Assembly (NCBI GenBank): GCA_964016885.1
Contig: OZ024743.1
Location: 207,824,001-207,888,000, forward strand
Length of the DNA: 64,000 nucleotides
Reading direction: 5' to 3'
DNA from: Eledone cirrhosa
Lineage: Eukaryota
Positions 1,090-60,930 of the stretch are shown here, piece after piece (within the stretch, counting starts at the first letter, position 1; the number at the start of each line of letters is the position of its first letter). Both the position numbers and the translations under genes were made by a program. The notes beneath the pieces are model-generated. The model was not told the origin of the DNA. It ran no database searches and saw only the letters and a program-made list of their open reading frames with translations.

Positions 1090-2390
1090 CAACATAGGCA
1101 CACAGTTTCAGATTTTGGGGTGAGGGTATAGGCTATTATGTCAACCCCTGTACATGACTGGTACTTATTTTGAAGTGAGGGTATAAGCTATTATGTCAAC
1201 CCCTGTACATGACTGGTACTTATTTTTTCTACTCTGGAAGGATGAGAGGTAAAAACAATTCCAGCAGAATTTAAACACAGAACATCAAGATACTTAACTA
1301 TGTAAGGCATTTTGTCAGTCACCATACCAGTTCTGCCAATCCATCGTCCTCTAATTGGAAATGATATTAAATAATACAGATTCAGGTTTTTTAAATATTT
1401 TTATATAATTTATAAAAGCAACGAAAATAATTTTCATAAATTGGACTTAAAACAGGAAAAAAGAAAAAATCGATGGCTTTGAGCCAAAATTAGAAGCTAT
1501 TATTATAATACACAAAAGGGCAGTGAATTGGCAGAATTGGTAGAGCTTTGGACAACATGCTTCATGTTCTGAGGCTAGCTTTACCTTTCATCCTTACAGG
1601 GTCAATAAAATAAAGTACCAGTAACATGCACTGGGGCTGATTTAATTGACTAACCCTCCTCCTCCAAAAAAAAAAAAAATTGGTTGGCCTTGGGCCTAGT
1701 TCAAAAACAATTATTATAAAATATAAAAAAATCAGTGGATTGGCAGTAATCGGTAGAGAGTCGGACGGCAACATGCTGTGCGACATGTAGTTACAGCCCT
1801 TTATATTCTGAATAAATCCAGCCAAAATTAGATTTGCCTTTCATCATTTTAGAATCAATAAAATAAAGTACCAGTAACAAACTGGTGTTGATTTAATCGA
1901 TTCCACCCACTTCCCTTCAAATTTCTGGCCTTGTGCTAAATGTAGGAACAATTATTATCAAATACATAAGGACTGTGGATTGGCAGTAATTGGTAGAGCA
2001 TCAGACTTTGTGGCATTTAGTTACAGCCCATTATATTCTGAGTTCAAGTACTACCAAGGATAAAGTACCAGTAACAAACTAGGGACTGAATTAATCAACT
2101 TTCCTCTTCCCTTCAAATTGCTGGCCTTGTGCCAAAAATAGAAACAATTATAAAATACAAATGGAAAAGGGAAGTAAAATGAAATAATTTCAAGAGAATC
2201 CCTTTAAACTGACACCCCACCAAATAATAATAATGGTTTCTGATTTAGGTATGAGGTCAACAAATATGAGGGGAAGGGAAAGTTGATTAAATTGACCCTT
2301 GTGTGGTATTGGTACTTTATTTTATCAACTCTATATGGATGAAAGACAAAGCTAATCTTGGCGAGATTTGAACTCAGAACGTAAAGGATT
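1090..2390. mobile_element. Cluster of tRNA-derived SINE family A copies: minus ~1090-1345, three plus ~1525-2150, minus ~2240-2390
   Basis: Recurring GGATTGGCAG..TGGTAGAGC head, GTTCAA B-box-like motif, CCTTTCATCC..ATAAAATAAAGTACCAG core and GGCCTTGTGCC tail; matches the copy at 57057-57245. Confidence 0.85.
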
Positions 2391-4955
2391 GTGAATATAT
2401 ACCACAGAGCATGTAGCCTGATACTACTACTAATTGTGAATATATACCACAAAGCATGTAGCCTGATACTACTACTAATTGTGAATATATACCACAGAGC
2501 ATGTAGCCTGATACTACTACTAATTGTGAATATATACCACAGAGCATGTAGCCTGATGCTACTAATAATAATTGTGAATATATACCACAAAGCATGTAGC
2601 CTGATACTACTACTAATTGTGAATATATACCACAGAGCATGTAGCCTGATACTACTACTAATTGTGAATATATACCAAAAAGCATGTAGCCTGATACTAC
2701 TAATAATTGTGAATATATACCACAAAGCATGTAGCCTGATACTACTAATAATTGTGAATATATACCACAAAGCATGTAGCCTGATACTACTACTAATTGT
2801 GAATATATACCACAAAGCATGTAGCCTGATACTACTACTAATTGTGAATATATACCACAAAGCATGTAGCCTGATACTACTACTAATTGTGAATATATAC
2901 CACAAAGCATGTAGCCTGATACTACTAATAATTGTGAATATATACCACAAAGCATGTAGCCTGATACTACTACTAATTGTGAATATATACCACAAAGCAT
3001 GTAGCCTGATACTACTACTAATTGTGAATATATACCACAAAGCATGTAGCCTGATACTACTACTAATTGTGAATATATACCACAAAGCATGTAGCCTGAT
3101 ACTACTAATAATTGTGAATATATACCACAAAGCATGTAGCCTGATACTACTAATAATTGTGAATATATACCACAAAGCATGTAGCCTGATACTACTACTA
3201 ATTGTGAATATATACCACAAAGCATGTAGCCTGATACTAATAATAATTGTGAATATATACCACAGAGCATGTAGCCTGATACTAATAATAATTGTGAATA
3301 TATATCACAGAGCATGTAGCCTGATACTACTAATAATTGTGAATATATTCCACAAAGCATGTAGCCTGATACTACTAATAATTGTGAATATATACCACAA
3401 AGCATGTAGCCTGATACTACTAATAATTGTGAATATATATCACAGAGCATGTAGCCTGATACTACTAATAATTGTGAATATATTCCACAAAGCATGTAGC
3501 CTGATACTACTACTAATTGTGAGTATATACCACAAAGCATGTAGCCTGATACTACTAATAATTGTGAATATATACCACAAAGCATGTAGCCTGATACTAC
3601 TAATAATTGTGAATATATACCACAAAGCATGTAGCCTGATACTACTACTAATTGTGAATATATACCACAAAGCATGTAGCCTGATACTACTAATAATTGT
3701 GAATATATACCACAGAGCATGTAGCCTGATACTACTAGTAATTGTGAATATATTCCACAAAGCATGTAGCCTGATACTACTAATAATTGTGAATATATAC
3801 CACAAAGCATGTAGCCTGATACTACTACTAATTGTGAATATATACCACAAAGCATGTAGCCTGATACTACTAATAATTGTGAATATATACCACAGAGCAT
3901 GTAGCCTGATACTACTAGTAATTGTGAATATATTCCACAAAGCATGTAGCCTGATACTACTACTAATTGTGAATATATACCACAGAGCATGTAGCCTGAT
4001 ACTACTAATAATTGTGAATATATACCACAAAGCATGTAGCCTGATACTACTACTAATTGTGAATATATACCACAAAGCATGTAGCCTGATGCTACTAATA
4101 ATAGTGAATATATACCACAAAGCATGTAGCCTGATACTACTACTAATTGTGAATATATACCACAGAGCATGTAGCCTGATACTACTACTAATTGTGAATA
4201 TATACCACAGAGCATGTAGCCTGATACTACTACTAATTGTGAATATATACCACAGAGCATGTAGCCTGATACTACTAATAATTGTGAATATATACCACAG
4301 AGCATGTAGCCTGATACTACTAATAATTGTGAATATATACCACAAAGCATGTAGCCTGATACTACTACTAATTGTGAATATATACCACAAAGCATGTAGT
4401 CTGATACTACTACTAATTGTGAATATATACCACAAAGCATGTAGCCTGATGCTACTACTAATTGTGAATATATACCACAGAGCATGTAGCCTGATACTAC
4501 TAATAATTGTGAATATATACCACAAAGCATGTAGCCTGATACTACTACTAATTGTGAATATATACCACAGAGCATGTAGCCTGATACTACTAATAATTGT
4601 GAATATATACCACAAAGCATGTAGCCTGATACTACTACTAATTGTGAATATATACCACAGAGCATGTAGCCTGATACTACTACTAATTGTGAATATATAC
4701 CACAAAGCATGTAGCCTGATACTACTAATAATTGTGAATATATACCACAAAGCATGTAGCCTGATACTACTAATAATAGTGAATATATACCACAGAGCAT
4801 GTAGCCTGATACTACTAATAATTGTGAATATATACCACAAAGCATGTAGCCTGATACTACTAATAATTGTGAATATATACCACAAAGCATGTAGCCTGAT
4901 ACTACTACTAATTGTGAGTATATACCACAGAGCATGTAGCCTGATACTAATAATA
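2388..4955. repeat. 45-bp satellite, ~57 copies (ATTGTGAATATATACCACAAAGCATGTAGCCTGATACTACTA(C/A)TA)
   Basis: Direct tandem periodicity; continuous with a minus-strand SINE at its left end. Confidence 0.98.
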
Positions 4956-4995
4956 ATGAGTATAAAGAAAGTGCTCAAGTGCAGAAATACTATAT

Positions 4996-5231: not shown

Positions 5232-8200
5232 TTAACTTTTTAGCATTTAGATTTATTCTATATTTACTATTATATTTTCATGGTAAAGGGTTTATCTCAC
5301 ATAACATTTCCATTACACTATATTTACTATTATATTTTCATGGTAAAGGGTTTACCTCACATAACATTTCCATTACACTATATTTACTATTATATTTTCA
5401 CAGTAAAGGGTTTATCTCACATAACATTTCCATTACACTATATTTACTATTATATTTTCATGGTAAAGGGTTTATCTCACATAACATTTCCATTACACTA
5501 TATTTACTATTATATTTTCATGGTAAAGGGTTTATCTCACATAACATTTCCATTACACTATATTTACTATTATATTTTCATGGTAAAGGGTTTATCTCAC
5601 ATAACATTTCCATTACACTATATTTACTATTATATTTTCATGGTAAAGGGTTTATCTCACATAACATTTCCATTACACTATATTTACTATTATATTTTCA
5701 TGGTAAAGGGTTTATCTCACATAACATTTCCATTACACTATATTTACTATTATATTTTCATGGTAAAGGGTTTATCTCACATAACATTTCCATTACACTA
5801 TATTTACTATTATATTTTCATGGTAAAGGGTTTATCTCACATAACATTTCCATTACACTATATTTACTATTATATTTTCACAGTAAAGGGTTTATCTCAC
5901 ATAACATTTCCATTACACTATATTTACTATTATATTTTCATGGTAAAGGGTTTATCTCACATAACATTTCCATTACACTATATATACTATTATATTTTCA
6001 TGGTAAAGGGTTTATCTGACATAACATTTCCATTACACTATATATACTATTATATTTTCATGGTAAAGGGTTTATCTCACATAACATTTCCATTACACTA
6101 TATTTACTATTATATTTTCATGGTAAAGGGTTTATCTCACATAACATTTCCATTACACTATATTTACTATTAAATTTTCATGGTAAAGGGTTTACCTCAC
6201 ATAACATTTCCATTACACTATATTTACTATTATATTTTCACAGTAAAGGGTTTATCTCACATAACATTTCCATTACACTATATTTACTATTATATTTTCA
6301 CAGTAAAGGGTTTATCTCACATAACATTTCCATTACACTATATTTACTATTATATTTTCATGGTAAAGGGTTTATCTCACATAACATTTCCATTACACTA
6401 TATTTACTATTATATTTTCATGGTAAAGGGTTTATCTCGCATAACATTTCCATTACACTATATTTACTATTATATTTTCATGGTAAAGGGTTTATCTCAC
6501 ATAACATTTCCATTACACTATATTTACTATTATATTTTCATGGTAAAGGGTTTATCTCACATAACATTTCCATTACACTATATTTACTATTATATTTTCA
6601 TGGTAAAGGGTTTATCTCACATAACATTTCCATTACACTATATATACTATTATATTTTCATGGTAAAGGGTTTATCTCACATAACATTTCCATTACACTA
6701 TATTTACTATTATATTTTCACAGTAAAGGGTTTATCTCACATAACATTTCCATTACACTATATTTACTATTAAATTTTCATGGTAAAGGGTTTACCTCAC
6801 ATAACATTTCCATTACACTATATTTACTATTATATTTTCACAGTAAAGGGTTTATCTCACATAACATTTCCATTACACTATATATACTATTATATTTTCA
6901 CAGTAAAGGGTTTATCTCACATAACATCTCCATTACACTATATTTACTATTATATTTTCATGGTAAAGGGTTTATCTCACATAACATTTCCATTACACTA
7001 TATATACTATTATATTTTCACAGTAAAGGGTTTATCTCACATAACATTTCCATTACACTATATTTACTATTATATTTTCATGGTAAAGGGTTTACCTCAC
7101 ATAACATTTCCATTACACTATATTTACTATTATATTTTCATGGTAAAGGGTTTACCTCACATAACATTTCCATTACACTATATTTACTATTATATTTTCA
7201 TGGTAAAGGGTTTACCTCGCATAACATTTCCATTACACTATATTTACTATTATATTTTCATGGTAAAGGGTTTATCTCACATAACATTTCCATTACACTA
7301 TATTTACTATTATATTTTCATGGTAAAGGGTTTATCTCACATAACATTTCCATTACACTATATTTACTATTGTATTTTCACAGTAAAGGGTTTATCTCAC
7401 ATAACATTTCCATTACACTATATTTACTATTATATTTTCATGGTAAAGGGTTTATCTCACATAACATTTCCATTACACTATATTTACTATTATATTTTCA
7501 CAGTAAAGGGTTTATCTCACATAACATTTCCATTACACTATATTTACTATTATATTTTCATGGTAAAGGGTTTATCTCACATAACATTTCCATTACACTA
7601 TATTTACTATTATATTTTCATGGTAAAGGGTTTATCTCACATAACATTTCCATTACACTATATTTACTATTATATTTTCATGGTAAAGGGTTTATCTCAC
7701 ATAACATTTCCATTACACTATATTTACTATTATATTTTCATGGTAAAGGGTTTATCTCACATAACATTTCCATTACACTATATTTACTATTATATTTTCA
7801 TGGTAAAGGGTTTATCTCACATAACATTTCCATTACACTATATTTACTATTATATTTTCATGGTAAAGGGTTTATCTCACATAACATTTCCATTACACTA
7901 TATTTACTATTATATTTTCATGGTAAAGGGTTTATCTCACATAACATTTCCATTACACTATATTTACTATTATATTTTCACAGTAAAGGGTTTATCTCAC
8001 ATAACATTTCCATTACACTATATTTACTATTATATTTTCATGGTAAAGGGTTTATCTCACATAACATTTCCATTACACTATATATACTATTATATTTTCA
8101 TGGTAAAGGGTTTATCTGACATAACATTTCCATTACACTATATATACTATTATATTTTCATGGTAAAGGGTTTATCTCACATAACATTTCCATTACACTA

Positions 8201-11200
8201 TATTTACTATTATATTTTCATGGTAAAGGGTTTATCTCACATAACATTTCCATTACACTATATTTACTATTAAATTTTCATGGTAAAGGGTTTACCTCAC
8301 ATAACATTTCCATTACACTATATTTACTATTATATTTTCACAGTAAAGGGTTTATCTCACATAACATTTCCATTACACTATATTTACTATTATATTTTCA
8401 CAGTAAAGGGTTTATCTCACATAACATTTCCATTACACTATATTTACTATTATATTTTCATGGTAAAGGGTTTATCTCACATAACATTTCCATTACACTA
8501 TATTTACTATTATATTTTCATGGTAAAGGGTTTATCTCGCATAACATTTCCATTACACTATATTTACTATTATATTTTCATGGTAAAGGGTTTATCTCAC
8601 ATAACATTTCCATTACACTATATTTACTATTATATTTTCATGGTAAAGGGTTTATCTCACATAACATTTCCATTACACTATATTTACTATTATATTTTCA
8701 TGGTAAAGGGTTTATCTCACATAACATTTCCATTACACTATATATACTATTATATTTTCATGGTAAAGGGTTTATCTCACATAACATTTCCATTACACTA
8801 TATTTACTATTATATTTTCACAGTAAAGGGTTTATCTCACATAACATTTCCATTACACTATATTTACTATTAAATTTTCATGGTAAAGGGTTTACCTCAC
8901 ATAACATTTCCATTACACTATATTTACTATTATATTTTCACAGTAAAGGGTTTATCTCACATAACATTTCCATTACACTATATATACTATTATATTTTCA
9001 CAGTAAAGGGTTTATCTCACATAACATCTCCATTACACTATATTTACTATTATATTTTCATGGTAAAGGGTTTATCTCACATAACATTTCCATTACACTA
9101 TATATACTATTATATTTTCACAGTAAAGGGTTTATCTCACATAACATTTCCATTACACTATATTTACTATTATATTTTCATGGTAAAGGGTTTACCTCAC
9201 ATAACATTTCCATTACACTATATTTACTATTATATTTTCACAGTAAAGGGTTTATCTCACATAACATTTCCATTACACTATATATACTATTATATTTTCA
9301 CAGTAAAGGGTTTATCTCACATAACATTTCCATTACACTATATTTACTATTATATTTTCATGGTAAAGGGTTTACCTCACATAACATTTCCATTACACTA
9401 TATTTACTATTATATTTTCATGGTAAAGGGTTTATCTCACATAACATTTCCATTACACTATATTTACTATTATATTTTCACAGTAAAGGGTTTATCTCAC
9501 ATAACATTTCCATTACACTATATTTACTATTATATTTTCATGGTAAAGGGTTTACCTCACATAACATTTCCATTACACTATATTTACTATTATATTTTCA
9601 TGGTAAAGGGTTTATCTCACATAACATTTCCATTACACTATATTTACTATTATATTTTCATGGTAAAGGGTTTATCTCACATAACATTTCCATTACACTA
9701 TATTTACTATTATATTTTCATGGTAAAGGGTTTATCTCACATAACATTTCCATTACACTATATTTACTATTATATTTTCATGGTAAAGGGTTTACCTCAC
9801 ATAACATTTCCATTACACTATATTTACTATTATATTTTCATGGTAAAGGGTTTACCTCACATAGCATTTCCATTACACTATATTTACTATTATATTTTCA
9901 TGGTAAAGGGTTTACCTCACATAACATTTCCATTACACTATATTTACTATTATATTTTCATGGTAAAGGGTTTATCTCACATAACATTTCCATTACACTA
10001 TATTTACTATTATATTTTCATGGTAAAGGGTTTATCTCACATAACATTTCCATTACACTATATTTACTATTATATTTTCATGGTAAAGGGTTTATCTCAC
10101 ATAACATTTCCATTACACTATATTTACTATTATATTTTCATGGTAAAGGGTTTACCTCACATAACATTTCCATTACACTATATTTACTATTATATTTTCA
10201 TGGTAAAGGGTTTACCTCACATAACATTTCCATTACACTATATTTACTATTATATTTTCATGGTAAAGGGTTTATCTCACATAACATTTCCATTACACTA
10301 TATTTACTATTATATTTTCATGGTAAAGGGTTTATCTCACATAACATTTCCATTACACTATATTTACTATTATATTTTCATGGTAAAGGGTTTACCTCGC
10401 ATAACATTTCCATTACACTATATTTACTATTATATTTTCATGGTAAAGGGTTTATCTCACATAACATTTCCATTACACTATATTTACTATTATATTTTCA
10501 TGGTAAAGGGTTTATCTCACATAACATTTCCATTACACTATATTTACTATTGTATTTTCACAGTAAAGGGTTTATCTCACATAACATTTCCATTACACTA
10601 TATTTACTATTATATTTTCATGGTAAAGGGTTTATCTCACATAACATTTCCATTACACTATATTTACTATTATATTTTCACAGTAAAGGGTTTATCTCAC
10701 ATAACATTTCCATTACACTATATTTACTATTATATTTTCATGGTAAAGGGTTTATCTCACATAACATTTCCATTACACTATATTTACTATTATATTTTCA
10801 TGGTAAAGGGTTTATCTCACATAACATTTCCATTACACTATATTTACTATTATATTTTCATGGTAAAGGGTTTATCTCACATAACATTTCCATTACACTA
10901 TATTTACTATTATATTTTCATGGTAAAGGGTTTATCTCACATAACATTTCCATTACACTATATTTACTATTATATTTTCATGGTAAAGGGTTTATCTCAC
11001 ATAACATTTCCATTACACTATATTTACTATTATATTTTCATGGTAAAGGGTTTATCTCACATAACATTTCCATTACACTATATTTACTATTATATTTTCA
11101 TGGTAAAGGGTTTATCTCACATAACATTTCCATTACACTATATTTACTATTATATTTTCACAGTAAAGGGTTTATCTCACATAACATTTCCATTACACTA

Positions 11201-14200
11201 TATTTACTATTATATTTTCATGGTAAAGGGTTTATCTCACATAACATTTCCATTACACTATATATACTATTATATTTTCATGGTAAAGGGTTTATCTGAC
11301 ATAACATTTCCATTACACTATATATACTATTATATTTTCATGGTAAAGGGTTTATCTCACATAACATTTCCATTACACTATATTTACTATTATATTTTCA
11401 TGGTAAAGGGTTTATCTCACATAACATTTCCATTACACTATATTTACTATTAAATTTTCATGGTAAAGGGTTTACCTCACATAACATTTCCATTACACTA
11501 TATTTACTATTATATTTTCACAGTAAAGGGTTTATCTCACATAACATTTCCATTACACTATATTTACTATTATATTTTCACAGTAAAGGGTTTATCTCAC
11601 ATAACATTTCCATTACACTATATTTACTATTATATTTTCATGGTAAAGGGTTTATCTCACATAACATTTCCATTACACTATATTTACTATTATATTTTCA
11701 TGGTAAAGGGTTTATCTCGCATAACATTTCCATTACACTATATTTACTATTATATTTTCATGGTAAAGGGTTTATCTCACATAACATTTCCATTACACTA
11801 TATTTACTATTATATTTTCATGGTAAAGGGTTTATCTCACATAACATTTCCATTACACTATATTTACTATTATATTTTCATGGTAAAGGGTTTATCTCAC
11901 ATAACATTTCCATTACACTATATATACTATTATATTTTCATGGTAAAGGGTTTATCTCACATAACATTTCCATTACACTATATTTACTATTATATTTTCA
12001 CAGTAAAGGGTTTATCTCACATAACATTTCCATTACACTATATTTACTATTAAATTTTCATGGTAAAGGGTTTACCTCACATAACATTTCCATTACACTA
12101 TATTTACTATTATATTTTCACAGTAAAGGGTTTATCTCACATAACATTTCCATTACACTATATATACTATTATATTTTCACAGTAAAGGGTTTATCTCAC
12201 ATAACATCTCCATTACACTATATTTACTATTATATTTTCATGGTAAAGGGTTTATCTCACATAACATTTCCATTACACTATATATACTATTATATTTTCA
12301 CAGTAAAGGGTTTATCTCACATAACATTTCCATTACACTATATTTACTATTATATTTTCATGGTAAAGGGTTTACCTCACATAACATTTCCATTACACTA
12401 TATTTACTATTATATTTTCACAGTAAAGGGTTTATCTCACATAACATTTCCATTACACTATATATACTATTATATTTTCACAGTAAAGGGTTTATCTCAC
12501 ATAACATTTCCATTACACTATATTTACTATTATATTTTCATGGTAAAGGGTTTACCTCACATAACATTTCCATTACACTATATTTACTATTATATTTTCA
12601 TGGTAAAGGGTTTATCTCACATAACATTTCCATTACACTATATTTACTATTATATTTTCACAGTAAAGGGTTTATCTCACATAACATTTCCATTACACTA
12701 TATTTACTATTATATTTTCATGGTAAAGGGTTTACCTCACATAACATTTCCATTACACTATATTTACTATTATATTTTCATGGTAAAGGGTTTATCTCAC
12801 ATAACATTTCCATTACACTATATTTACTATTATATTTTCATGGTAAAGGGTTTATCTCACATAACATTTCCATTACACTATATTTACTATTATATTTTCA
12901 TGGTAAAGGGTTTATCTCACATAACATTTCCATTACACTATATTTACTATTATATTTTCATGGTAAAGGGTTTACCTCACATAACATTTCCATTACACTA
13001 TATTTACTATTATATTTTCATGGTAAAGGGTTTACCTCACATAGCATTTCCATTACACTATATTTACTATTATATTTTCATGGTAAAGGGTTTACCTCAC
13101 ATAACATTTCCATTACACTATATTTACTATTATATTTTCATGGTAAAGGGTTTATCTCACATAACATTTCCATTACACTATATTTACTATTATATTTTCA
13201 TGGTAAAGGGTTTATCTCACATAACATTTCCATTACACTATATTTACTATTATATTTTCATGGTAAAGGGTTTATCTCACATAACATTTCCATTACACTA
13301 TATTTACTATTATATTTTCATGGTAAAGGGTTTACCTCACATAACATTTCCATTACACTATATTTACTATTATATTTTCATGGTAAAGGGTTTACCTCAC
13401 ATAACATTTCCATTACACTATATTTACTATTATATTTTCATGGTAAAGGGTTTATCTCACATAACATTTCCATTACACTATATTTACTATTATATTTTCA
13501 TGGTAAAGGGTTTATCTCACATAACATTTCCATTACACTATATTTACTATTATATTTTCATGGTAAAGGGTTTATCTCACATAACATTTCCATTACACTA
13601 TATTTACTATTATATTTTCATGGTAAAGGGTTTACCTCACATAACATTTCCATTACACTATATATACTATTATATTTTCATGGTAAAGGGTTTATCTCAC
13701 ATAACATTTCCATTACTCTATATATACTATTATATTTTCACAGTAAAGGCTTTACCTCACATAACATTTCCATTACACTATATTTACTATTATATTTTCA
13801 TGGTAAAGGGTTTATCTCACATAACATTTCCATTACACTATATTTACTATTATATTTTCATGGTAAAGGGTTTATCTCACATAACATTTCCATTACACTA
13901 TATATACTATTATATTTTCATGGTAAAGGGTTTATCTCACAACATTTCCATTACACTATATTTACTATTATATTTTCATGGTAAAGGGTTTACCTCACAT
14001 AACATTTCCATTACACTATATATACTATTATATTTTCATGGTAAAGGGTTTACCTCACATAACATTTCCATTACACTATATTTACTATTATATTTTCATG
14101 GTAAAGGGTTTATCTCACATAACATTTCCATTACACTATATTTACTATTATATTTTCTTGGTAAAGGGTTTATCTCACATAACATTTCCATTACACTATA

Positions 14201-14746
14201 TATACTATTATATTTTCACAGTAAAGGGTTTATCTCACATAACATTTCCATTACACTATATTTACTATTATATTTTCATGGTAAAGGGTTTACCTCACAT
14301 AACATTTCCATTACACTATATATACTATTATATTTTCATGGTAAAGGGTTTACCTCACATAACATTTCCATTACACTATATTTACTATTATATTTTCATG
14401 GTAAAGGGTTTATCTCACATAACATTTCCATTACACTATATTTACTATTATATTTTCATGGTAAAGGGTTTATCTCACATAACATTTCCATTACACTATA
14501 TTTACTATTATATTTTCACAGTAAAGGGTTTATCTCACATAACATTTCCATTACACTATATTTACTATTATATTTTCACAGTAAAGGCTTTACCTCACAT
14601 AATATCGAATCAATGAGATTTTGATATTATTTATTTTGAGAACAATACTTTAACATCAGTATGAGCAGCCAGTTACAGCCGGTTTGAACAGAAAGAGGTG
14701 AGAGAATTCTGGCCAGATATGGCCGGTTTAAATGCCAAAGGGTTAA
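5232..14746. mobile_element. TTAA-flanked (piggyBac-type) MITE expanded by an internal satellite
   Basis: Left end TTAA-CTTTTTAGCATTT, right end AATGCCAAAGGG-TTAA; 14600-14746 aligns with the ~200-bp element at 35345-35548. Confidence 0.75.
5255..14601. repeat. 60-bp satellite, ~155 copies, with higher-order structure
   Basis: Unit TGGTAAAGGGTTTATCTCACATAACATTTCCATTACACTATATTTACTATTATATTTTCA; diagnostic variants recur at 2100- and 3180-bp spacing. Confidence 0.99.
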
Positions 14747-15410: not shown

Positions 15411-16385
15411 TACGCAGACGACAGCAAGCTGTACCTTGAGATAACAAGGACAGATCCTGAACACTATAGATCTTGCTTGCAGTCTGACCTGGACACAATG
15501 CAACAATGGATCTCAGAGTGGCAACTCAAGCTAGCTGTGGACAAGTGCACCTCCATGCATTTTGGGAGTAAAAACCCAGTGTCCACATACTCCCTCCACA
15601 GCACTAATATCAAGAAGTCTTCCTGTGAATGTGACCTGGGCATTACGGTCAGTAGCGATTTGCGTTGGACGAGGCACGTCTCTAAAATTGTCAAGAGGGC
15701 CAAGGGTGTCTTAGCATCACTCAGCAAGACCTTTGTCAGCCGCTCTCCAGATATCTATTTAAGGCTGTATACAGCTATGGTGCGACCACACTTAGAATTT
15801 GCATCACCAGTCTGGAACCCCTATCTTGCTCAGGACATTGACCGCCTGAAAACTGTTCAGAGACGTGCAACCAAGCGAATACCCTCCATCAGGCATCTAC
15901 CATACTCTGAACGCCTTGCTTCCCTGGGCATGGATTCATTGAAGCTCCGACGCCTGGCATCTGACTTGGTAAACACCCACAAAATTGTTAACCATGTTGC
16001 CAATAACAACCCTGAGTACCTTTTTGATTTCCATGTGTCTAACACACGTGGAAATGCCCACAAAGTAAGAAAACAGCACAGTTCCCATGACTTTCGGAAA
16101 CATTTTTTCACGCTCAGAGTTGCTGAAGCATGGAACAAACTACCTGCATCAGTTGTTAGCTGTTGAGACACTGCATCCTTTAAGGCCTCCATGGAACAAA
16201 CTACCTGCATCAGTTGTTAGCTGTCGAGACACTGCATCCTTTAAGGCCTCCATGCTTCCCGAGATCCGCCAATACTACAGCTAACACATACACACATGTA
16301 CTTCCCTGACATTTGTGTATTATTCTATGTACTATATTGACGAGTTGTAGTGCACCTGAGCACTTTACACAATAATTTCATTATA
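15411..16385 (+). mobile_element. 5'-truncated CR1/L2-group LINE (RT C-terminus plus 3' end)
   Basis: YADDSKLY...LQSDLD...WQLKLAVDKC...RPHLEFASPVWNPY...HFFTLRVAEAWNKLP; 61-bp internal tandem duplication at 16130-16251. Confidence 0.92.
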
Positions 16386-21895: not shown

Positions 21896-23203
21896 TTATT
21901 TAACAAAACCTAACCCCAATGGTCTGTCCATAATGTTCATTTTTGGTACAGGGAAAGGTCGTAATGGTGGAAGACCTTTATTGTGGCAGTCAAACCCATA
22001 TGGTTGTATCTGTGGAGGTGCTGGTGGTTGGTGGTTTTGGGGTGGAATAATGTGAGGATTGGGGATGGATTCAACAGTAATGGATTTATCACACACATCT
22101 CGGTGTTGGACAGATGGATGTTGGGGTAGAACGGAGGGTTTTAAGTGATTTATAGGGGATGAATACATGCTAAATGTTTTATCTGAATTTCCAAATGAAA
22201 CAGATGTTGGGATGGAGAGGGCAGTTTTGGAAAGGCTTGGTAATGATGTTGGTGGAGGTGAAGTGACAGTAAATGCACCTTCAAGAATGTCTGAGGAGGG
22301 AGGATGTTGTTGGATCGGATTTTGTGGGGGTTTGTGAGGAGATGGAATTTGTGGAGGTGGTGAGACAGCAGAAAAAGTCTTGTCACAAGTGTTACAGTTA
22401 TTAGAGATAGAATGAGGTGGAAGTCCTGCTCCCATAACACTGAGGTCGGGTTTCACATGACTAAGCATGTGAACTTTAAGGGCACCATTATTAGCAAAGT
22501 TGTTACCACATGTCAGGCACTTAAAAAATTTATCTCCGGCATGAGATTTGATATGAATCCGACGAGCTCCTGGGTTGGAGAAATCTTTACCACAGGTTTC
22601 ACATTTATAGGGACGATCTCCGATATGGATTTTAAGATGTGTTTTCCAGGCACCAGAATTAGCAAATCTTTTGTCACAAATGTCACATGTGTAAGGTTTT
22701 TCACCAGTATGTGTACGAGAGTGTGTCTTCTGGGCACCAGAATTGGCAAATTTACGGCCACATGTGTCACACTTAAAGGGTTTCTCTCCCGTGTGTGTTT
22801 TCGCATGTGTTTTCCAGGCACCAGAATTAGCAAAACATTTCCCGCAGACTTCACATTTAAAAGGTTTTTCTCCAGTATGTGTCCTTAGGTGTGTCTTCAA
22901 GTGGCCAGATCCCGACAGAATCCGGCCACATATCTCGCAGTCGAAAGGCATTTTTAAGCTGGCAACAGCACTTGCAGCTGTAGAAACTGCAGGATATGTA
23001 AATCCTACAGGAGTTTGAGCTGGTGCTGCAGCCAAAGATGGTTGGGGATCAGATGTTGTGTTCTGTAGAGCAGTAAGACTGGTGAAGAAATTAAATGGAT
23101 ACCAGCAGTTATTGTCAACACCAGCACCAGCAGACGTACTGAAACAAGGCAGTGATGTCGGCGGTGGTGGTGAGGAGGAGGTGGAGGATTGTTGTTTACT
23201 CAT
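21896..23203 (-). CDS. C2H2 zinc-finger protein, 435 aa, six tandem fingers, Pro/Ser-rich N- and C-terminal regions
   Basis: Six CX2CX12HX3H fingers with TGEKP-type linkers in an uninterrupted ORF; upstream acceptor ttttctctttttctttcag| starts the exon at 23725. Confidence 0.95.
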   Translation of the reverse strand: MSKQQSSTSSSPPPPTSLPCFSTSAGAGVDNNCWYPFNFFTSLTALQNTTSDPQPSLAAAPAQTPVGFTYPAVSTAASAVASLKMPFDCEICGRILSGSGHLKTHLRTHTGEKPFKCEVCGKCFANSGAWKTHAKTHTGEKPFKCDTCGRKFANSGAQKTHSRTHTGEKPYTCDICDKRFANSGAWKTHLKIHIGDRPYKCETCGKDFSNPGARRIHIKSHAGDKFFKCLTCGNNFANNGALKVHMLSHVKPDLSVMGAGLPPHSISNNCNTCDKTFSAVSPPPQIPSPHKPPQNPIQQHPPSSDILEGAFTVTSPPPTSLPSLSKTALSIPTSVSFGNSDKTFSMYSSPINHLKPSVLPQHPSVQHRDVCDKSITVESIPNPHIIPPQNHQPPAPPQIQPYGFDCHNKGLPPLRPFPVPKMNIMDRPLGLGFVK

Positions 23204-51455: not shown

Positions 51456-52176
51456 TATACAATAAATGTAATCTGAGTTTTTCGAATATTAATTGTTTCT
51501 ACTTTTGGCACAATGCCAGCAATTATCCCAGTCTATTGCTGGTACTTTAGTTTATCGACCCCGTAAGGATGAAAGGCAAAGTTAACCTCGGATCATAAAG
51601 AAAGGTAACTCTATGCTTCAAAGCATAGCGTCCGACCCACTGCCGATACATATATAATAAGAACTGATTAGAGTTTAAGCAAAGAATCGATACTGTCACC
51701 CTTTATAGGAACTTCTGAAACTAAAAAAAAAACAATCTGCGGACGCAGAGGTAAATGTTTCGAAAAACGTTACAACCGAAGGAAAACAGGAAGACGATAC
51801 TTTGGTTCGTGAAGACGTTCCCGGGCAAATAGGGAAAAAAGCTAGGATAATTACGGCCTTATGTGGAGCGTGGAGAACGATTTCTTGCAAAGACAAAAAC
51901 AGGTTTAAGGTATAAATGGAAACGTTAGACTAATATTCTATTTATACGGATACATATACATACACGCACACAAATATACTTATATATATATATACACATA
52001 CATGCATATATATAGACATATATACATACATACCTACACACGAATATACATACAATACACTCATATACATACATATACACACACACATAGATACATACCT
52101 ACACCTACATACGCATGTACATACAATACATTCATATACATATATATACATATATATACATACATACATACATTGA

Positions 52177-52530
52177 AAATGTGTTCTGTTGTGGAGATCA
52201 GCTGCCCACTTGTGTAAACGTTGTCAGAAAAATACAGGAGAAGGAGGACATCTACGGACCATTGGTGAGGAGTTTACAAATCCAATATCCAAGATACACC
52301 TTTAGCTTCATACCCATCATTATTGGAGCTGCGGGTTATATACCAAGCCGCTTGGACCAAAGTATGACTGAACTTGGATTTGCGGACAAAAAGCGCAGCT
52401 CCCTAATTCATAGTCTACAAATGGCTGCGATAGCTGGCACCTTCAAAATTTGCAAAACATTCTTGCAATTCAAGGGATGACAATTTCTTTTCTTTTACAA
52501 CCTTGCCACCAGGAAGGTGGCCGGTAAAAA
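52177..52530 (+). mobile_element. 3' fragment of an R4/Dong-type non-LTR element (restriction-like endonuclease)
   Basis: VVEISCP / NVVRKIQEKEDIYGPLVRSLQIQYP..IPIIIGAAG..GTFKICK; embedded in TA/CATA microsatellite. Confidence 0.8.
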
Positions 52531-55870: not shown

Positions 55871-56326
55871 GAGGTTTACACCTGCGGGTAGTCAACACCA
55901 CTACTACTACTACTATCAAAACTAGCAAAAGAAATAACGAAACGAAATATAAAATTCCATATTTTATTTACGAAAATTGAATAGAAATTTAGGCTGGTTC
56001 GCACCAATTCGCTGTACATCATCTTCACTCTACGTACGAACTTTTTGTAGAATTTAACGGCCGCCGGATGTAGAATGGTGACCACGATAACCCAGACAAA
56101 TTACAGTAACTATGACATACTGGTGTCGCGAGAGCATGAGGCGAGGCAAAGCAGTGAATTTTCGTCCTTTTCATTTTGATGGAAGTTCAATTTACAAATC
56201 ACGGAACATTCAGGCAGTGGCAGTTTCACTGTGGCTAGTTTACAATCTAAATCAGCTGTGAGAGCCATAAAAGCCATCTTCGTCTGTTCAGCCGCTAACA
56301 CAGCCTGTTGAGTCGTAATAAAGGTC

Positions 56327-56749
56327 TTAGCAGCAACATCTTCCGGGACATCCTGTTATCATGAGCCTACAAGAAGGTATTTTATGTACGTAATAACAGG
56401 GAGTATGACAATGACTATGGCAGCCATGACATCCGTGACAACTCTGACATCCGTGACAACCATGTCCGTGGCAGCAACTGTGGCAGTTTACAGGGAAGTA
56501 GTGAGGAGCGTGTCCGTGGCAGCAATGTCCGTGGCAGCAACTTCCATGTCCGTGGCAGCAATGTCCTTGTTTGTGGCAGTGTGTAGTTCCACAGCAGCTA
56601 CCACATCCGTGGCAGGAGCCGCCGTGACAGTGAACTGAGCCGTGGCAATGTCCATGTCCGTGACAGTGGGCATGTCCATGGCATGAATGATGGCATGGAG
56701 AGTGGATATGCATAAGAATGGAATCGGTTAAACAATCGCAACAACACAT
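56327..56749 (-). CDS. Intronless 140-aa Cys/His/Gly-rich protein (CHG repeats), family unknown; metal-binding or cross-linked structural protein suspected
   Basis: ATG in AAAAGC-ATG context through TAA; ~35 Cys and ~34 His by hand count; GC-rich unique DNA; repeats vary at synonymous positions; candidate AATAAA at 55963-55968 (minus). Confidence 0.8.
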   Translation of the reverse strand: MCCCDCLTDSILMHIHSPCHHSCHGHAHCHGHGHCHGSVHCHGGSCHGCGSCCGTTHCHKQGHCCHGHGSCCHGHCCHGHAPHYFPVNCHSCCHGHGCHGCQSCHGCHGCHSHCHTPCYYVHKIPSCRLMITGCPGRCCC

Positions 56750-57056
56750 GCTTTTGGTACTACTTACAATATGTCAAAATAATAGATATCGTATTTACTT
56801 CTGCGAGTTGATACAACTTTGGTCGGGCAAACTTGAATTTACTTTGACAATCTCCTTTCAGATTGCGAAAGCCTCACCAAAAAGCCTAATAGCCTAAAGT
56901 TGTTAAACGAAAGAGGATACCGCTTGATACGTGTCCACCTAAGTTGGCTTTCTACTTGATTTTAAAGTTTTTTTTTTACAAAGATTACGAAATAGATCAT
57001 TATGACGTCATAAACCACAACATTACACTTTTATATCGTTATAAAAATTGTTCTTG

Positions 57057-57245
57057 GATTGGCAGAATCGGTAGAGCGTCTGACATCATGCTTTGTAGTA
57101 TAGAGTTACATCCCTTTGCGTTCTGAGTTCAAATCCCGCCGAGGTTAGCTTTGCTTTTCATCCTCACTGAGTCGATAAAATAAAATACTAGCCTTTCTCC
57201 GGCTCCCCCAAAATGTTGGTCTTCTGCTTAAATCAGAAACCATTA
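57057..57245 (+). mobile_element. SINE family A, well-preserved copy
   Basis: GGATTGGCAGAATCGGTAGAGC A-box head, GAGTTCAAATCC B-box, core motif. Confidence 0.88.
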
Positions 57246-57809
57246 TTCCCAGTTGTGTAAATAACATTACAAATATTCACAAAGTTGGTTTTAAAAGCCA
57301 TTGATGATTACAGAAATACGAGAAAGATAAAAGCAAAATTAAGTAATGAAGATAGGGGGCAGGAGAAAGAAGGGCAGATATGGCTGAATAGGAAAGTAGA
57401 CGAAAGGATTATAAATACCACGAGGGGAAAAGTAAGAGCGTTAGAGCCACTGAAGAAAAAGGAAGAGAGGGGGGGGGGGGCGATGATAGGCTCTTTTACT
57501 GATGATTTCTAACAGAAAACACTGCGGTCTTGCTGGAGCACCGCTTTGATTTAGTCGATTAAATCGACCCCGAACACAGTAATTACTTTTTCGATCGAGT
57601 ATGGTACTTATTTCATCGCTCTCTTTGTTTTTGTCGAATTGCTAGGTTAAGGGACAAACACAGAGAAGGACGAGCAGAAACATCTCAATGTGAGTCCACA
57701 GGTGAAACTCCAGAGTAACTAGACTCATCATTTATAATAGGGAACATTATTAAGCTCTATTTTGGTATTGAGCACTCATTCTCACTTCAGTCAACATCAC
57801 ACGGATTTC

Positions 57810-59552: not shown

Positions 59553-60930
59553 AAAATTAACCTGGCTAAGACTAAAGTTCTAGTTTGTAGGAAAGAAAAT
59601 AAGGTGGCGGTCCCTTCTGGGAAATGGCCATGCTCAGTGTGTAGGAAAGGCGTAGGTAGAAACTCCATTCTGTGTCCCAAATGCAAAGTATGGGTGCATA
59701 AAAGATGTAGTGGGATCACAGGTAAGCTAACTAAGAACATAGATTTTACATGTGGCCGGTGCTCTGGTGCAATAAGTAGCAGCAAGTGCCCACAAAATAC
59801 TAGCTCCTTCAACTGCGCAGAGGGTTCTATAGAAATAGTGGACAGCTTCTGTTACCTGGGTGACAAAATCAGCAGTGGGGGAGGGTGCTCTGAAAGTACA
59901 GTAGCTAAGAGTCAGAACTGGATGGAAAAAGTTCAGAGAGCTTATACCACTATTAGCTGCTAAAGGGTTCTCCCTAAAAATGAAAGGCAGGTTGTATGAT
60001 GCCTGCATACGAACAGCAATGTTGCATGGCAGTGAGACCTGGGCATTGTGTGCAGAGGATATACGCAGACTAGAGAGGAACGAAGCTTGCATGCTCCGCT
60101 GGATGTGTAATAGTAATATACGTGAACGGCAAAGCATAAACGAACTAAGGAAAAAAATTAGAAATAAGAGGGATCAGATGTTGTTTACTCGAGAGAAGGC
60201 TACGTTGGTATGGACACGTGATGCGCATGAAAGTCGATAGCTGTATAACAAAGTGCAGGGCAATAAAGATAGACAGTAGCCACGGAATAGGCAGACCTAG
60301 AAAAACCTGGGACGAGCTGATAAACTCCGACCTCACACACTTACACCTCTCCAAGACAATGTCACTGGACCGAGACCTTTGGCGGTACTCAGTAATAGAG
60401 AAGGCCCACCTTACCTAAATACATAGTAAAACCTACTACAGCCAGTAGGCATCTCTAACAAAATACACCCCCGTCCCACCACCCCCACCCCATCCACACC
60501 ACCCCCTCCTATGTAAAGTTATGTTGGTGCCACACCATCCAGGCCGAAACAAATGAGATCGTGTAGGTGTCACGACAAAAAAAACACCGTCCACGCTGTA
60601 AATGTGGCCGTGTAGGCAACACGGTAAAAACCTCCCAGCCCCACACCGTAAATGTGGTTGGTGTTAGGAAGGGCATCCAGCTGTAGAAAACCCGCCAGAC
60701 AGTCCACGCTGTAATGTGGCCGTGTAGGCAACACGGTAAAAACCTCCCAGCCCCACACTGTAAATGTGGTTGGTGTTAGGAAGGGCATCCAGCTGTAGAA
60801 AACCCGCCAGACAGTCCTATGCGAGCAAGACAACCACTCTTGCCTCAAGTGGGAAAACCCCCGTCCAAACCCATGCAAGCGTGGAACACGGACGCTAAAC
60901 CTTGATGATAATGATGATGATGATGATGAT
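59553..60930 (+). mobile_element. 5'-truncated RTE-clade LINE with PHD-like Cys motif, 3' UTR and (GAT)n tail
   Basis: INLAKTKVL..WPCSVCRKGVGRNSILCPKCKVWVHKRCS..FCYLGD..KGRLYDACIRTAMLHGSETW..GRPRKTW; frameshifts present. Confidence 0.92.

Follow-up and report, generated by a model that had tools for sequence, protein, structure and literature searches.

Features of the locus

The window analysed here is a stretch of 64,000 nucleotides of Eledone cirrhosa DNA. On its minus strand it carries a Cys/His-rich reading frame that belongs to a family with a four-exon parent gene elsewhere on the same contig. The features of the locus are the following.

56327..56749, minus: Cys/His-rich ORF of 140 aa, the coding region of the retrocopy
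56684..56749, minus: N-terminus of the family, about 22 codons, CD..TDS..MH.H.PCH
56393..56695, minus: Cys-His-Gly repeat tract, predicted to be metal-binding and disordered
56326..56357, minus: zone of a net +1 frameshift that gives the terminal RCCC-stop, located by DNA alignment to the parent
56260..56337, minus: heptad helix of the family, recognisable, out of frame, now mostly 3' UTR
56817..57055, minus: homologue of the non-coding exon 1 of the parent, joined to exon 2, with the 50.9-kb intron missing
57000..57013, no strand: perfect 14-bp palindrome with the core TGACGTCA (CRE-like), an element found in 8/8 family members
56184..56255, minus: decayed sequence homologous to the end of exon 2 of the parent (score 59, shuffled maximum 30)
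56151..56177, minus: decayed homologue of the 35-nt parent exon 3, marginal (28 against a shuffled maximum of 25) and in the expected place
55886..56136, minus: homologous to exon 4 of the parent, with what was the end of the coding sequence and the 3' UTR (score 112, shuffled maximum 33)
55963..55968, minus: AATAAA, a candidate signal for polyadenylation, with a T-rich stretch after it
G000:C4:375796996-375809370: parent gene, spliced frame of 583 aa

Elsewhere in the window, a single ORF at 21896-23203 on the minus strand encodes a C2H2 zinc-finger protein of 435 aa, whose six fingers are accompanied by a tail rich in Pro and Ser. Long minisatellite arrays of 45-bp and 60-bp units (2388-4957 and 5258-14602) contain spurious ORFs of up to 857 aa. 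The ORFs at 15498-16166, 52115-52480 and 59980-60240, all on the plus strand, are by eye what we take to be remnants of a LINE reverse transcriptase or endonuclease.

The Cys/His-rich reading frame

The 140-residue protein contains 35 Cys, 34 His, 21 Gly, 2 Asp, 0 Glu, 2 Lys and 2 Arg; it starts with MCCC and finishes with RCCC. The motif CHG occurs 12 times, CH 17 times and CCHGH 4 times. Cys and His together make up 49% of the protein, which is predicted to be disordered, has a computed pI of 7.7 and shows no hydrophobic leader. An earlier note, made from the letters alone, had reported about 35 Cys and 34 His, few acidic and basic residues, the two CCC ends and the lack of a signal peptide, and the recount (2 acidic and 4 basic residues) confirms this. 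With Arg and Lys at only 4/140, its statement that the protein does not fit the Arg-rich protamines also holds.

The note had further read the wobble differences between the repeats as a sign of selection on the protein. For the commonest CHG 9-mer, all 14 near-matches lie in the coding frame and 9 of the 13 mismatches fall at third positions (p=0.009), which argues that the repeats of the ORF are kept at the protein level; short DNA-level tandem repeats occur within the ORF as well. The stretch was spanned gap-free by single contigs in three sequencing runs of one sample. Since these runs behave as genomic contigs of a sample that is possibly the source of the assembly, they exclude only an assembly slip in the frame. 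The sole variant among the three runs, at 56519 and present in 2/3 of them, is a silent change of a Cys codon. Among the runs listed as carrying the stretch there was no RNA run.

A family with a four-exon parent gene

When the genome was searched at the DNA level, 10 matches were obtained, the window itself among them, and ORFs with the same N-terminus were found on the contigs C3, C4 (375.8 Mb), C5, C9, C12 and C28. The search with the upstream region (8 matches) added C1, and the search with the conserved middle (6 matches) added a fragment on C2. This fragment (L037, G000:C2:163281002-163281106) consists of the helix only, its 5' part is gone, and it is probably a dead, truncated retrocopy. 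Taking the copy number as a lower bound, the family comprises at least the four-exon parent and seven intron-free copies on seven contigs, the window copy included. The gene is therefore no orphan, as the note had called it, since the same genome has seven further family loci with ORFs and one fragment.

The parent locus lies on C4 at 375.75-375.81 Mb, 168 Mb away from the window. Its exon 1 is non-coding and ends with a GTAAGT donor, and its three introns of 50.9, 7.1 and 3.5 kb are all of the GT-AG type. The third exon of 35 nt, which encodes a basic KRKR patch, was found with a profile made from the copies (E 0.075) and has proper splice sites and frame. The spliced protein of 583 aa contains 216 Pro and 178 Cys, and about 370 of its residues are near-pure Pro/Cys repeats. 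Intron 1 showed no sign of an additional 5' mini-exon; instead, about 27 nt after the acceptor have been lost from the parent.

By exact look-up, all eight family proteins (window 0/1, relatives 0/7) were absent from a collection of 15 billion proteins, so annotation has probably missed them. In the literature searched, largely outside subscription journals, no account of the family was found. The family is apparently undescribed and restricted to its lineage.

The window copy is a truncated retrocopy

Five segments of the parent exons are colinear within 1.2 kb of the window, scoring 185, 145, 59, 28 and 112 against shuffled maxima of 46, 34, 30, 25 and 33, respectively. The six ends of the parent introns had no clear match in the window (best score 40 against 39 for shuffles). 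The exon junctions 1 (43 against 35, with a query one base off) and 2 (42 against 36) scored above the shuffles, whereas junction 3 (27 against 35) did not. In four or five other copies, some parent intron ends score above the shuffles, and these scores probably reflect AT/AC microsatellites. The six sibling copies sit on six other contigs, unlinked to the parent. Since the exons are colinear and the introns are absent, the window gene and its six siblings are shown to be retrocopies of the four-exon parent, an origin that goes beyond what the earlier note had seen.

The shared homology spans from about -380 to 100-150 nt beyond the AATAAA region, and further shared bits belong to a high-copy repeat. 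The copies are about 25-30% diverged, and the 3' alignments reveal no clear A tail. Where the parent homology ends, the shared 5' region is adjoined at 57057-57250 by a very high-copy interspersed repeat, SINE-like by depth. The tree of the eight members is star-like and fits separate insertions without proving them. With supports of 12-57 its branching order is weakly supported, and a single insertion followed by DNA duplication may be the history instead.

A CRE-like palindrome shared by the parent and its copies

The palindrome is located at -240 to -283 in the eight family members. Four members have the exact core TGACGTCA, three carry a CpG-type change on either strand and one carries another change. 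Its 16 columns have a mean conservation of 0.96, compared to 0.80 elsewhere in the 5' region and reached by 0/236 other windows, in an alignment anchored at the palindrome, which favours this score. That mirror-image changes are tolerated points to recognition of the palindrome as double-stranded DNA by a bZIP dimer. In mammals, spermatid genes are switched on through CRE sites and CREM. In four copies, the match to the parent continues upstream of the palindrome for about 100 nt, and the element would therefore have been part of the source RNA.

Genome-wide, the palindrome pattern is not enriched (203 matches against 854 for the control). A longer perfect palindrome with the same core occurs at nine sites on C5 (12.55-13.13 Mb), several of them at intervals of about 17 kb, which points to genes or repeats arrayed in tandem. 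A TATAAAA at -286 was rejected, as it is absent from the other copies.

Domain loss and a frameshift

Five parts can be distinguished in the family. The conserved N-terminus of 22 residues and the Cys-His-Gly tract are kept in all copies. The third part, present in 5/8 members, is a predicted helix in which Val and Gln recur in register through five heptads. The fourth, in 4/8 members, consists of Pro-Cys-X repeats with 11-56 overlapping PCxPC matches, in the form of Cys-Gly-Pro or Cys-Ala-Pro in C5, C9 and C12 and of Pro-Pro-Cys-Cys in the parent. The last part, a short Cys/His end, is found in the parent, C1 and C9. In a single-sequence model of the C12 copy (mean pLDDT 51), the helix at residues 104-137 is the only confident fold, and the region of the Cys-His-Gly tract has a low pLDDT.

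Truncation differs copy by copy. C1 and C9 have lost the helix by an in-frame deletion and stay open to the C-terminus of the parent, a point in favour of helix-less forms being tolerated or useful. The KRKR patch is in frame in C1 and missing from the window copy.

Read in the next frame from 56337, the window copy gives the family helix, with 13/18 residues identical to the parent (E 4e-6). The final CCC-stop is thus helix-coding sequence read out of frame. The earlier note had noticed the CCC at both ends; the letters are there, but their symmetry is accidental, the C-terminal one being a frameshift product that the note did not recognise. Beyond the frameshift, the former coding sequence has many more frame-breaking gaps. 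The out-of-frame helix itself is still well kept, with only 2 silent and 3 replacement changes, indicating that the frameshift came late. Programmed frameshifting or an edited read-through had no supporting sign.

Signs of selection on the Cys/His domain

When the first 22 codons of the window copy were compared with 5 relatives (C1 and C9 have gaps and were left out), pN was 0.14-0.23 and pS was 0.37-0.89. Among the changes specific to the window copy in the N-terminus, 6 are replacements (about 53 sites) and 3 are silent (about 13 sites), a modest silent bias in small numbers. At CpGs inside His-Gly codon pairs, silent changes exceeded replacement changes by 5 to 1 in the window and by 31 to 8 in six copies (p 3e-4), a test in which the repeats are non-independent and from which C1 and the parent were left out. 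An open ORF of 139-242 aa is found in 7/7 copies that retain the 5' region. Under a neutral simulation run along the branch lengths of the tree, 120 codons stayed open in the window copy in 8.5% of the cases without indels and in 1.9% with few, and jointly in the seven copies with a frequency of 1.5e-6 without indels; another version gave 0.4-24%. The simulation therefore rejects decay since insertion and does not reject a recent death.

In all seven copies the Cys/His domain is open and silent changes outnumber replacements, a comparison that supports the protein-level selection proposed in the earlier note. We conclude that the 140-aa ORF is a real coding sequence of a retrogene family. However, the selection signal in the window copy may predate the frameshift.

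This leads to the first alternative, which we regard as unlikely: the window copy was a working retrogene with N-terminus, tract and helix like C3 and C28, was recently disabled by the frameshift and now represents a young pseudogene within a family that otherwise functions. The helix has barely decayed since it left the frame, the terminal branch is long (0.216), and the tract of the window copy is less regular than that of C3 or C5; these observations speak for this reading. However, the frameshift spared the whole Cys/His tract, the palindrome is intact, the last 245 nt before the ORF contain no upstream ATG, and the AATAAA is present. In addition, C1 and C9 lost the helix independently with open frames, and the only variant observed among the sequencing runs is silent.

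Searches for homologues and likeness to known systems

The note had named a clear match to a characterised family as one finding that would speak against it, and neither Pfam nor the protein searches gave one. The window protein has no Pfam family, and among the 7 relatives scanned three have four weak matches, all below the curated cut-offs. With the window protein, the protein search gave 0 matches among 441 candidates and 0 among 1.84 billion representatives. A six-member profile gave 21 matches, which we consider compositional because none has the N-terminus or the helix motif of the family. The helix region of the parent matched 0/10 candidates (proteins of 289-923 aa). The PDB sequence search gave 5 weak matches (E 0.012 or worse), and Rfam gave none. 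In the Atlas, look-alikes were found only under 0.9, and none for the C12 copy.

Pfam scans of the window protein and 7 relatives detected no sequence homology to ODF1, Mst87F or SMCP. ODF1 has an N-terminal leucine zipper and C-terminal PCX repeats, according to the part of the source available (PMC6906709). At the family level, the likeness to ODF1/HSPB10 is in the plan: Cys/Pro-rich, Pro-Cys-X repeats at the C-terminus, a helical oligomerisation motif nearer to the N-terminus and no signal peptide. Unlike ODF1, the family has a Cys-His-Gly tract and, by the same scans, neither a small heat-shock (alpha-crystallin) domain nor detectable homology; the window copy itself lacks the helix and has 0 Pro-Cys-X repeats, the two elements on which the likeness is based. 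Cys-Pro repeats occur also in keratins and other proteins.

The fly proteins Mst87F and Mst98C (Mst98Ca/b) are likened to ODF proteins as a small testis multigene family in the part of PMC12584897 consulted. The C5, C9 and partly the C12 copies share Cys-Gly-Pro repeats with the Mst(3)CGP proteins; these repeats are absent in the window protein, and the family differs by its His-rich tract and heptad helix. The Drosophila Mst(3)CGP family has Cys-Gly-Pro repeats and is not known to have a His-rich tract or heptad helix. SMCP, the sperm mitochondria-associated cysteine-rich protein, has repeats of the Pro-Cys-Cys-Pro type, which the tail repeats of the parent resemble, whereas the parent is a protein of 583 aa with a His tract and a helix and shows no homology to it in the Pfam scans.

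With testis-derived retrogene families, ours shares the dispersed intron-free copies of an intron-containing parent. It differs in that each copy is truncated differently and appears to bring its own upstream control element instead of using the promoter of a neighbour. Compared with the alpha/beta1 metallothioneins of cephalopods, the window protein is likewise small, high in Cys and presumably cytoplasmic, but it is twice as long, His-rich and Lys-poor and lacks their domain patterns and an MRE.

Proposed function of the family

Of the two functional options in the earlier note, the Zn- or disulphide-linked structural one, in its sperm-tail form, was strengthened by the family, whereas the metallothionein-like one was weakened. 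By analogy, we give about an even chance to the window gene encoding a cytoplasmic spermatid protein that binds Zn and, by cross-linking, becomes part of the outer dense fibres or the sheath of the sperm tail. The family most likely works like the known Zn/disulphide sperm-fibre proteins and belongs to none of their families; by composition, without homology, the parent shares the ODF1 plan and would be convergent with ODF1 and Mst87F. This reading draws on the ODF1-like plan of the parent, the Pro-Cys-X repeats and heptad helix of the relatives, the need for germline RNA, the conserved CRE-like element and the fibres of cephalopod sperm. Heritable retrocopies require germline RNA, so repeated retroposition supports the sperm-tail option. 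Retrogene parents are often testis-expressed, as stated in the part of PMC5803294 that was available. For Octopus vulgaris sperm, nine outer dense fibres and a fibrous sheath are described in the accessible text of PMC11753710. However, retroposition shows germline RNA and not a male-specific function.

In the proposed mechanism, the parent RNA would be abundant in the male germline and would give rise to repeated retroposition. If this RNA starts upstream of the palindrome, every copy would have received a bZIP site (CREB/CREM-type) of its own and could thereby remain expressed. The heptad helix and the Pro-Cys-X tails may bring about the assembly of full-length members, and helix-less members such as the window copy may serve as small matrix proteins that chelate Zn and form cross-links. 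During assembly, Zn would protect the thiols, and it would leave before oxidation, as in mammalian fibres. There, zinc on cysteine thiols prevents early oxidation and its loss permits stiffening, according to the passages available from PMC7589359 and PMC8471410. A paper of 1976, known by its title and cited in PMC7589359, concerns zinc binding by the accessory fibres of mammals and cephalopods.

The same Cys-rich ends and missing signal peptide would suit a cross-linking matrix protein inside the cells of a somatic tissue that is hard or tough (skin, sucker cuticle or the cells that form the beak), similar to keratin-associated or cornified-envelope proteins. The best look-alikes in the Atlas, the clusters of NICE-1 (0.78) and a keratin-associated 3-1-like protein (0.77), are feature-level only and below the useful level, and Pfam gave no match to these families. 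Since dispersal by retroposition requires germline RNA, this function appears rather improbable. Skin genes of the keratin-associated or cornified-envelope kind are usually arranged in tandem clusters.

In the sperm head, a member of the family might serve as a nuclear or perinuclear scaffold linked by Zn or disulphides, in the manner of transition protein 2 or of the cysteine-rich Eledone protamine. The basic KRKR patch of the parent mini-exon, in frame in C1, is consistent with this, as is the existence of a cysteine-rich cephalopod protamine, named in the title of a reference (PMC5122968). The low Arg+Lys content and near-neutral pI of the window protein, which has no basic patch, make such a role quite improbable.

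A His-type metallothionein-like chelator that stores or detoxifies Zn/Cu/Cd in somatic tissue, to which the Cys/His content, the predicted disorder, the presumed cytoplasmic location and an added His/Cys motif in some snail MTs (in the part of PMC7826182 seen) would point, is highly improbable, since 0/8 members fit the mollusc alpha or beta1 CxC patterns as given in the parts of PMC7826182 and PMC9781358 consulted (in line with the misfit to classical mollusc metallothioneins in the note), the window protein has 1 CxC, Pfam detected no metallothionein in it or 7 relatives, the MRE core is absent within 1000 nt upstream of 7/7 copies and about 1 kb at exon 1 of the parent, the parent contains a helix besides its long Pro/Cys tail, and cephalopods possess ordinary MTs of 69-73 aa (PMC7826182, same part).

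Returning to the sperm-tail fibres, a fuller and more tentative version, possible rather than probable, is that the family represents the zinc-binding high-sulphur proteins of cephalopod sperm accessory fibres. These would have arisen independently of ODF1 and Mst87F with a new His/Cys module and spread as self-promoting retrogenes through a travelling CRE-like element, each copy being trimmed to a different mix of domains and the window copy to a pure Cys/His cross-linker. If this is true, the sperm-fibre proteins of cephalopods to which zinc binding was ascribed in 1976, judging by the title, would gain sequences. A third, independent origin of Zn/disulphide armour of the sperm tail would become testable, and the family would be a clean case of structural proteins built by retroposition, an inherited promoter element and copy-by-copy domain loss.
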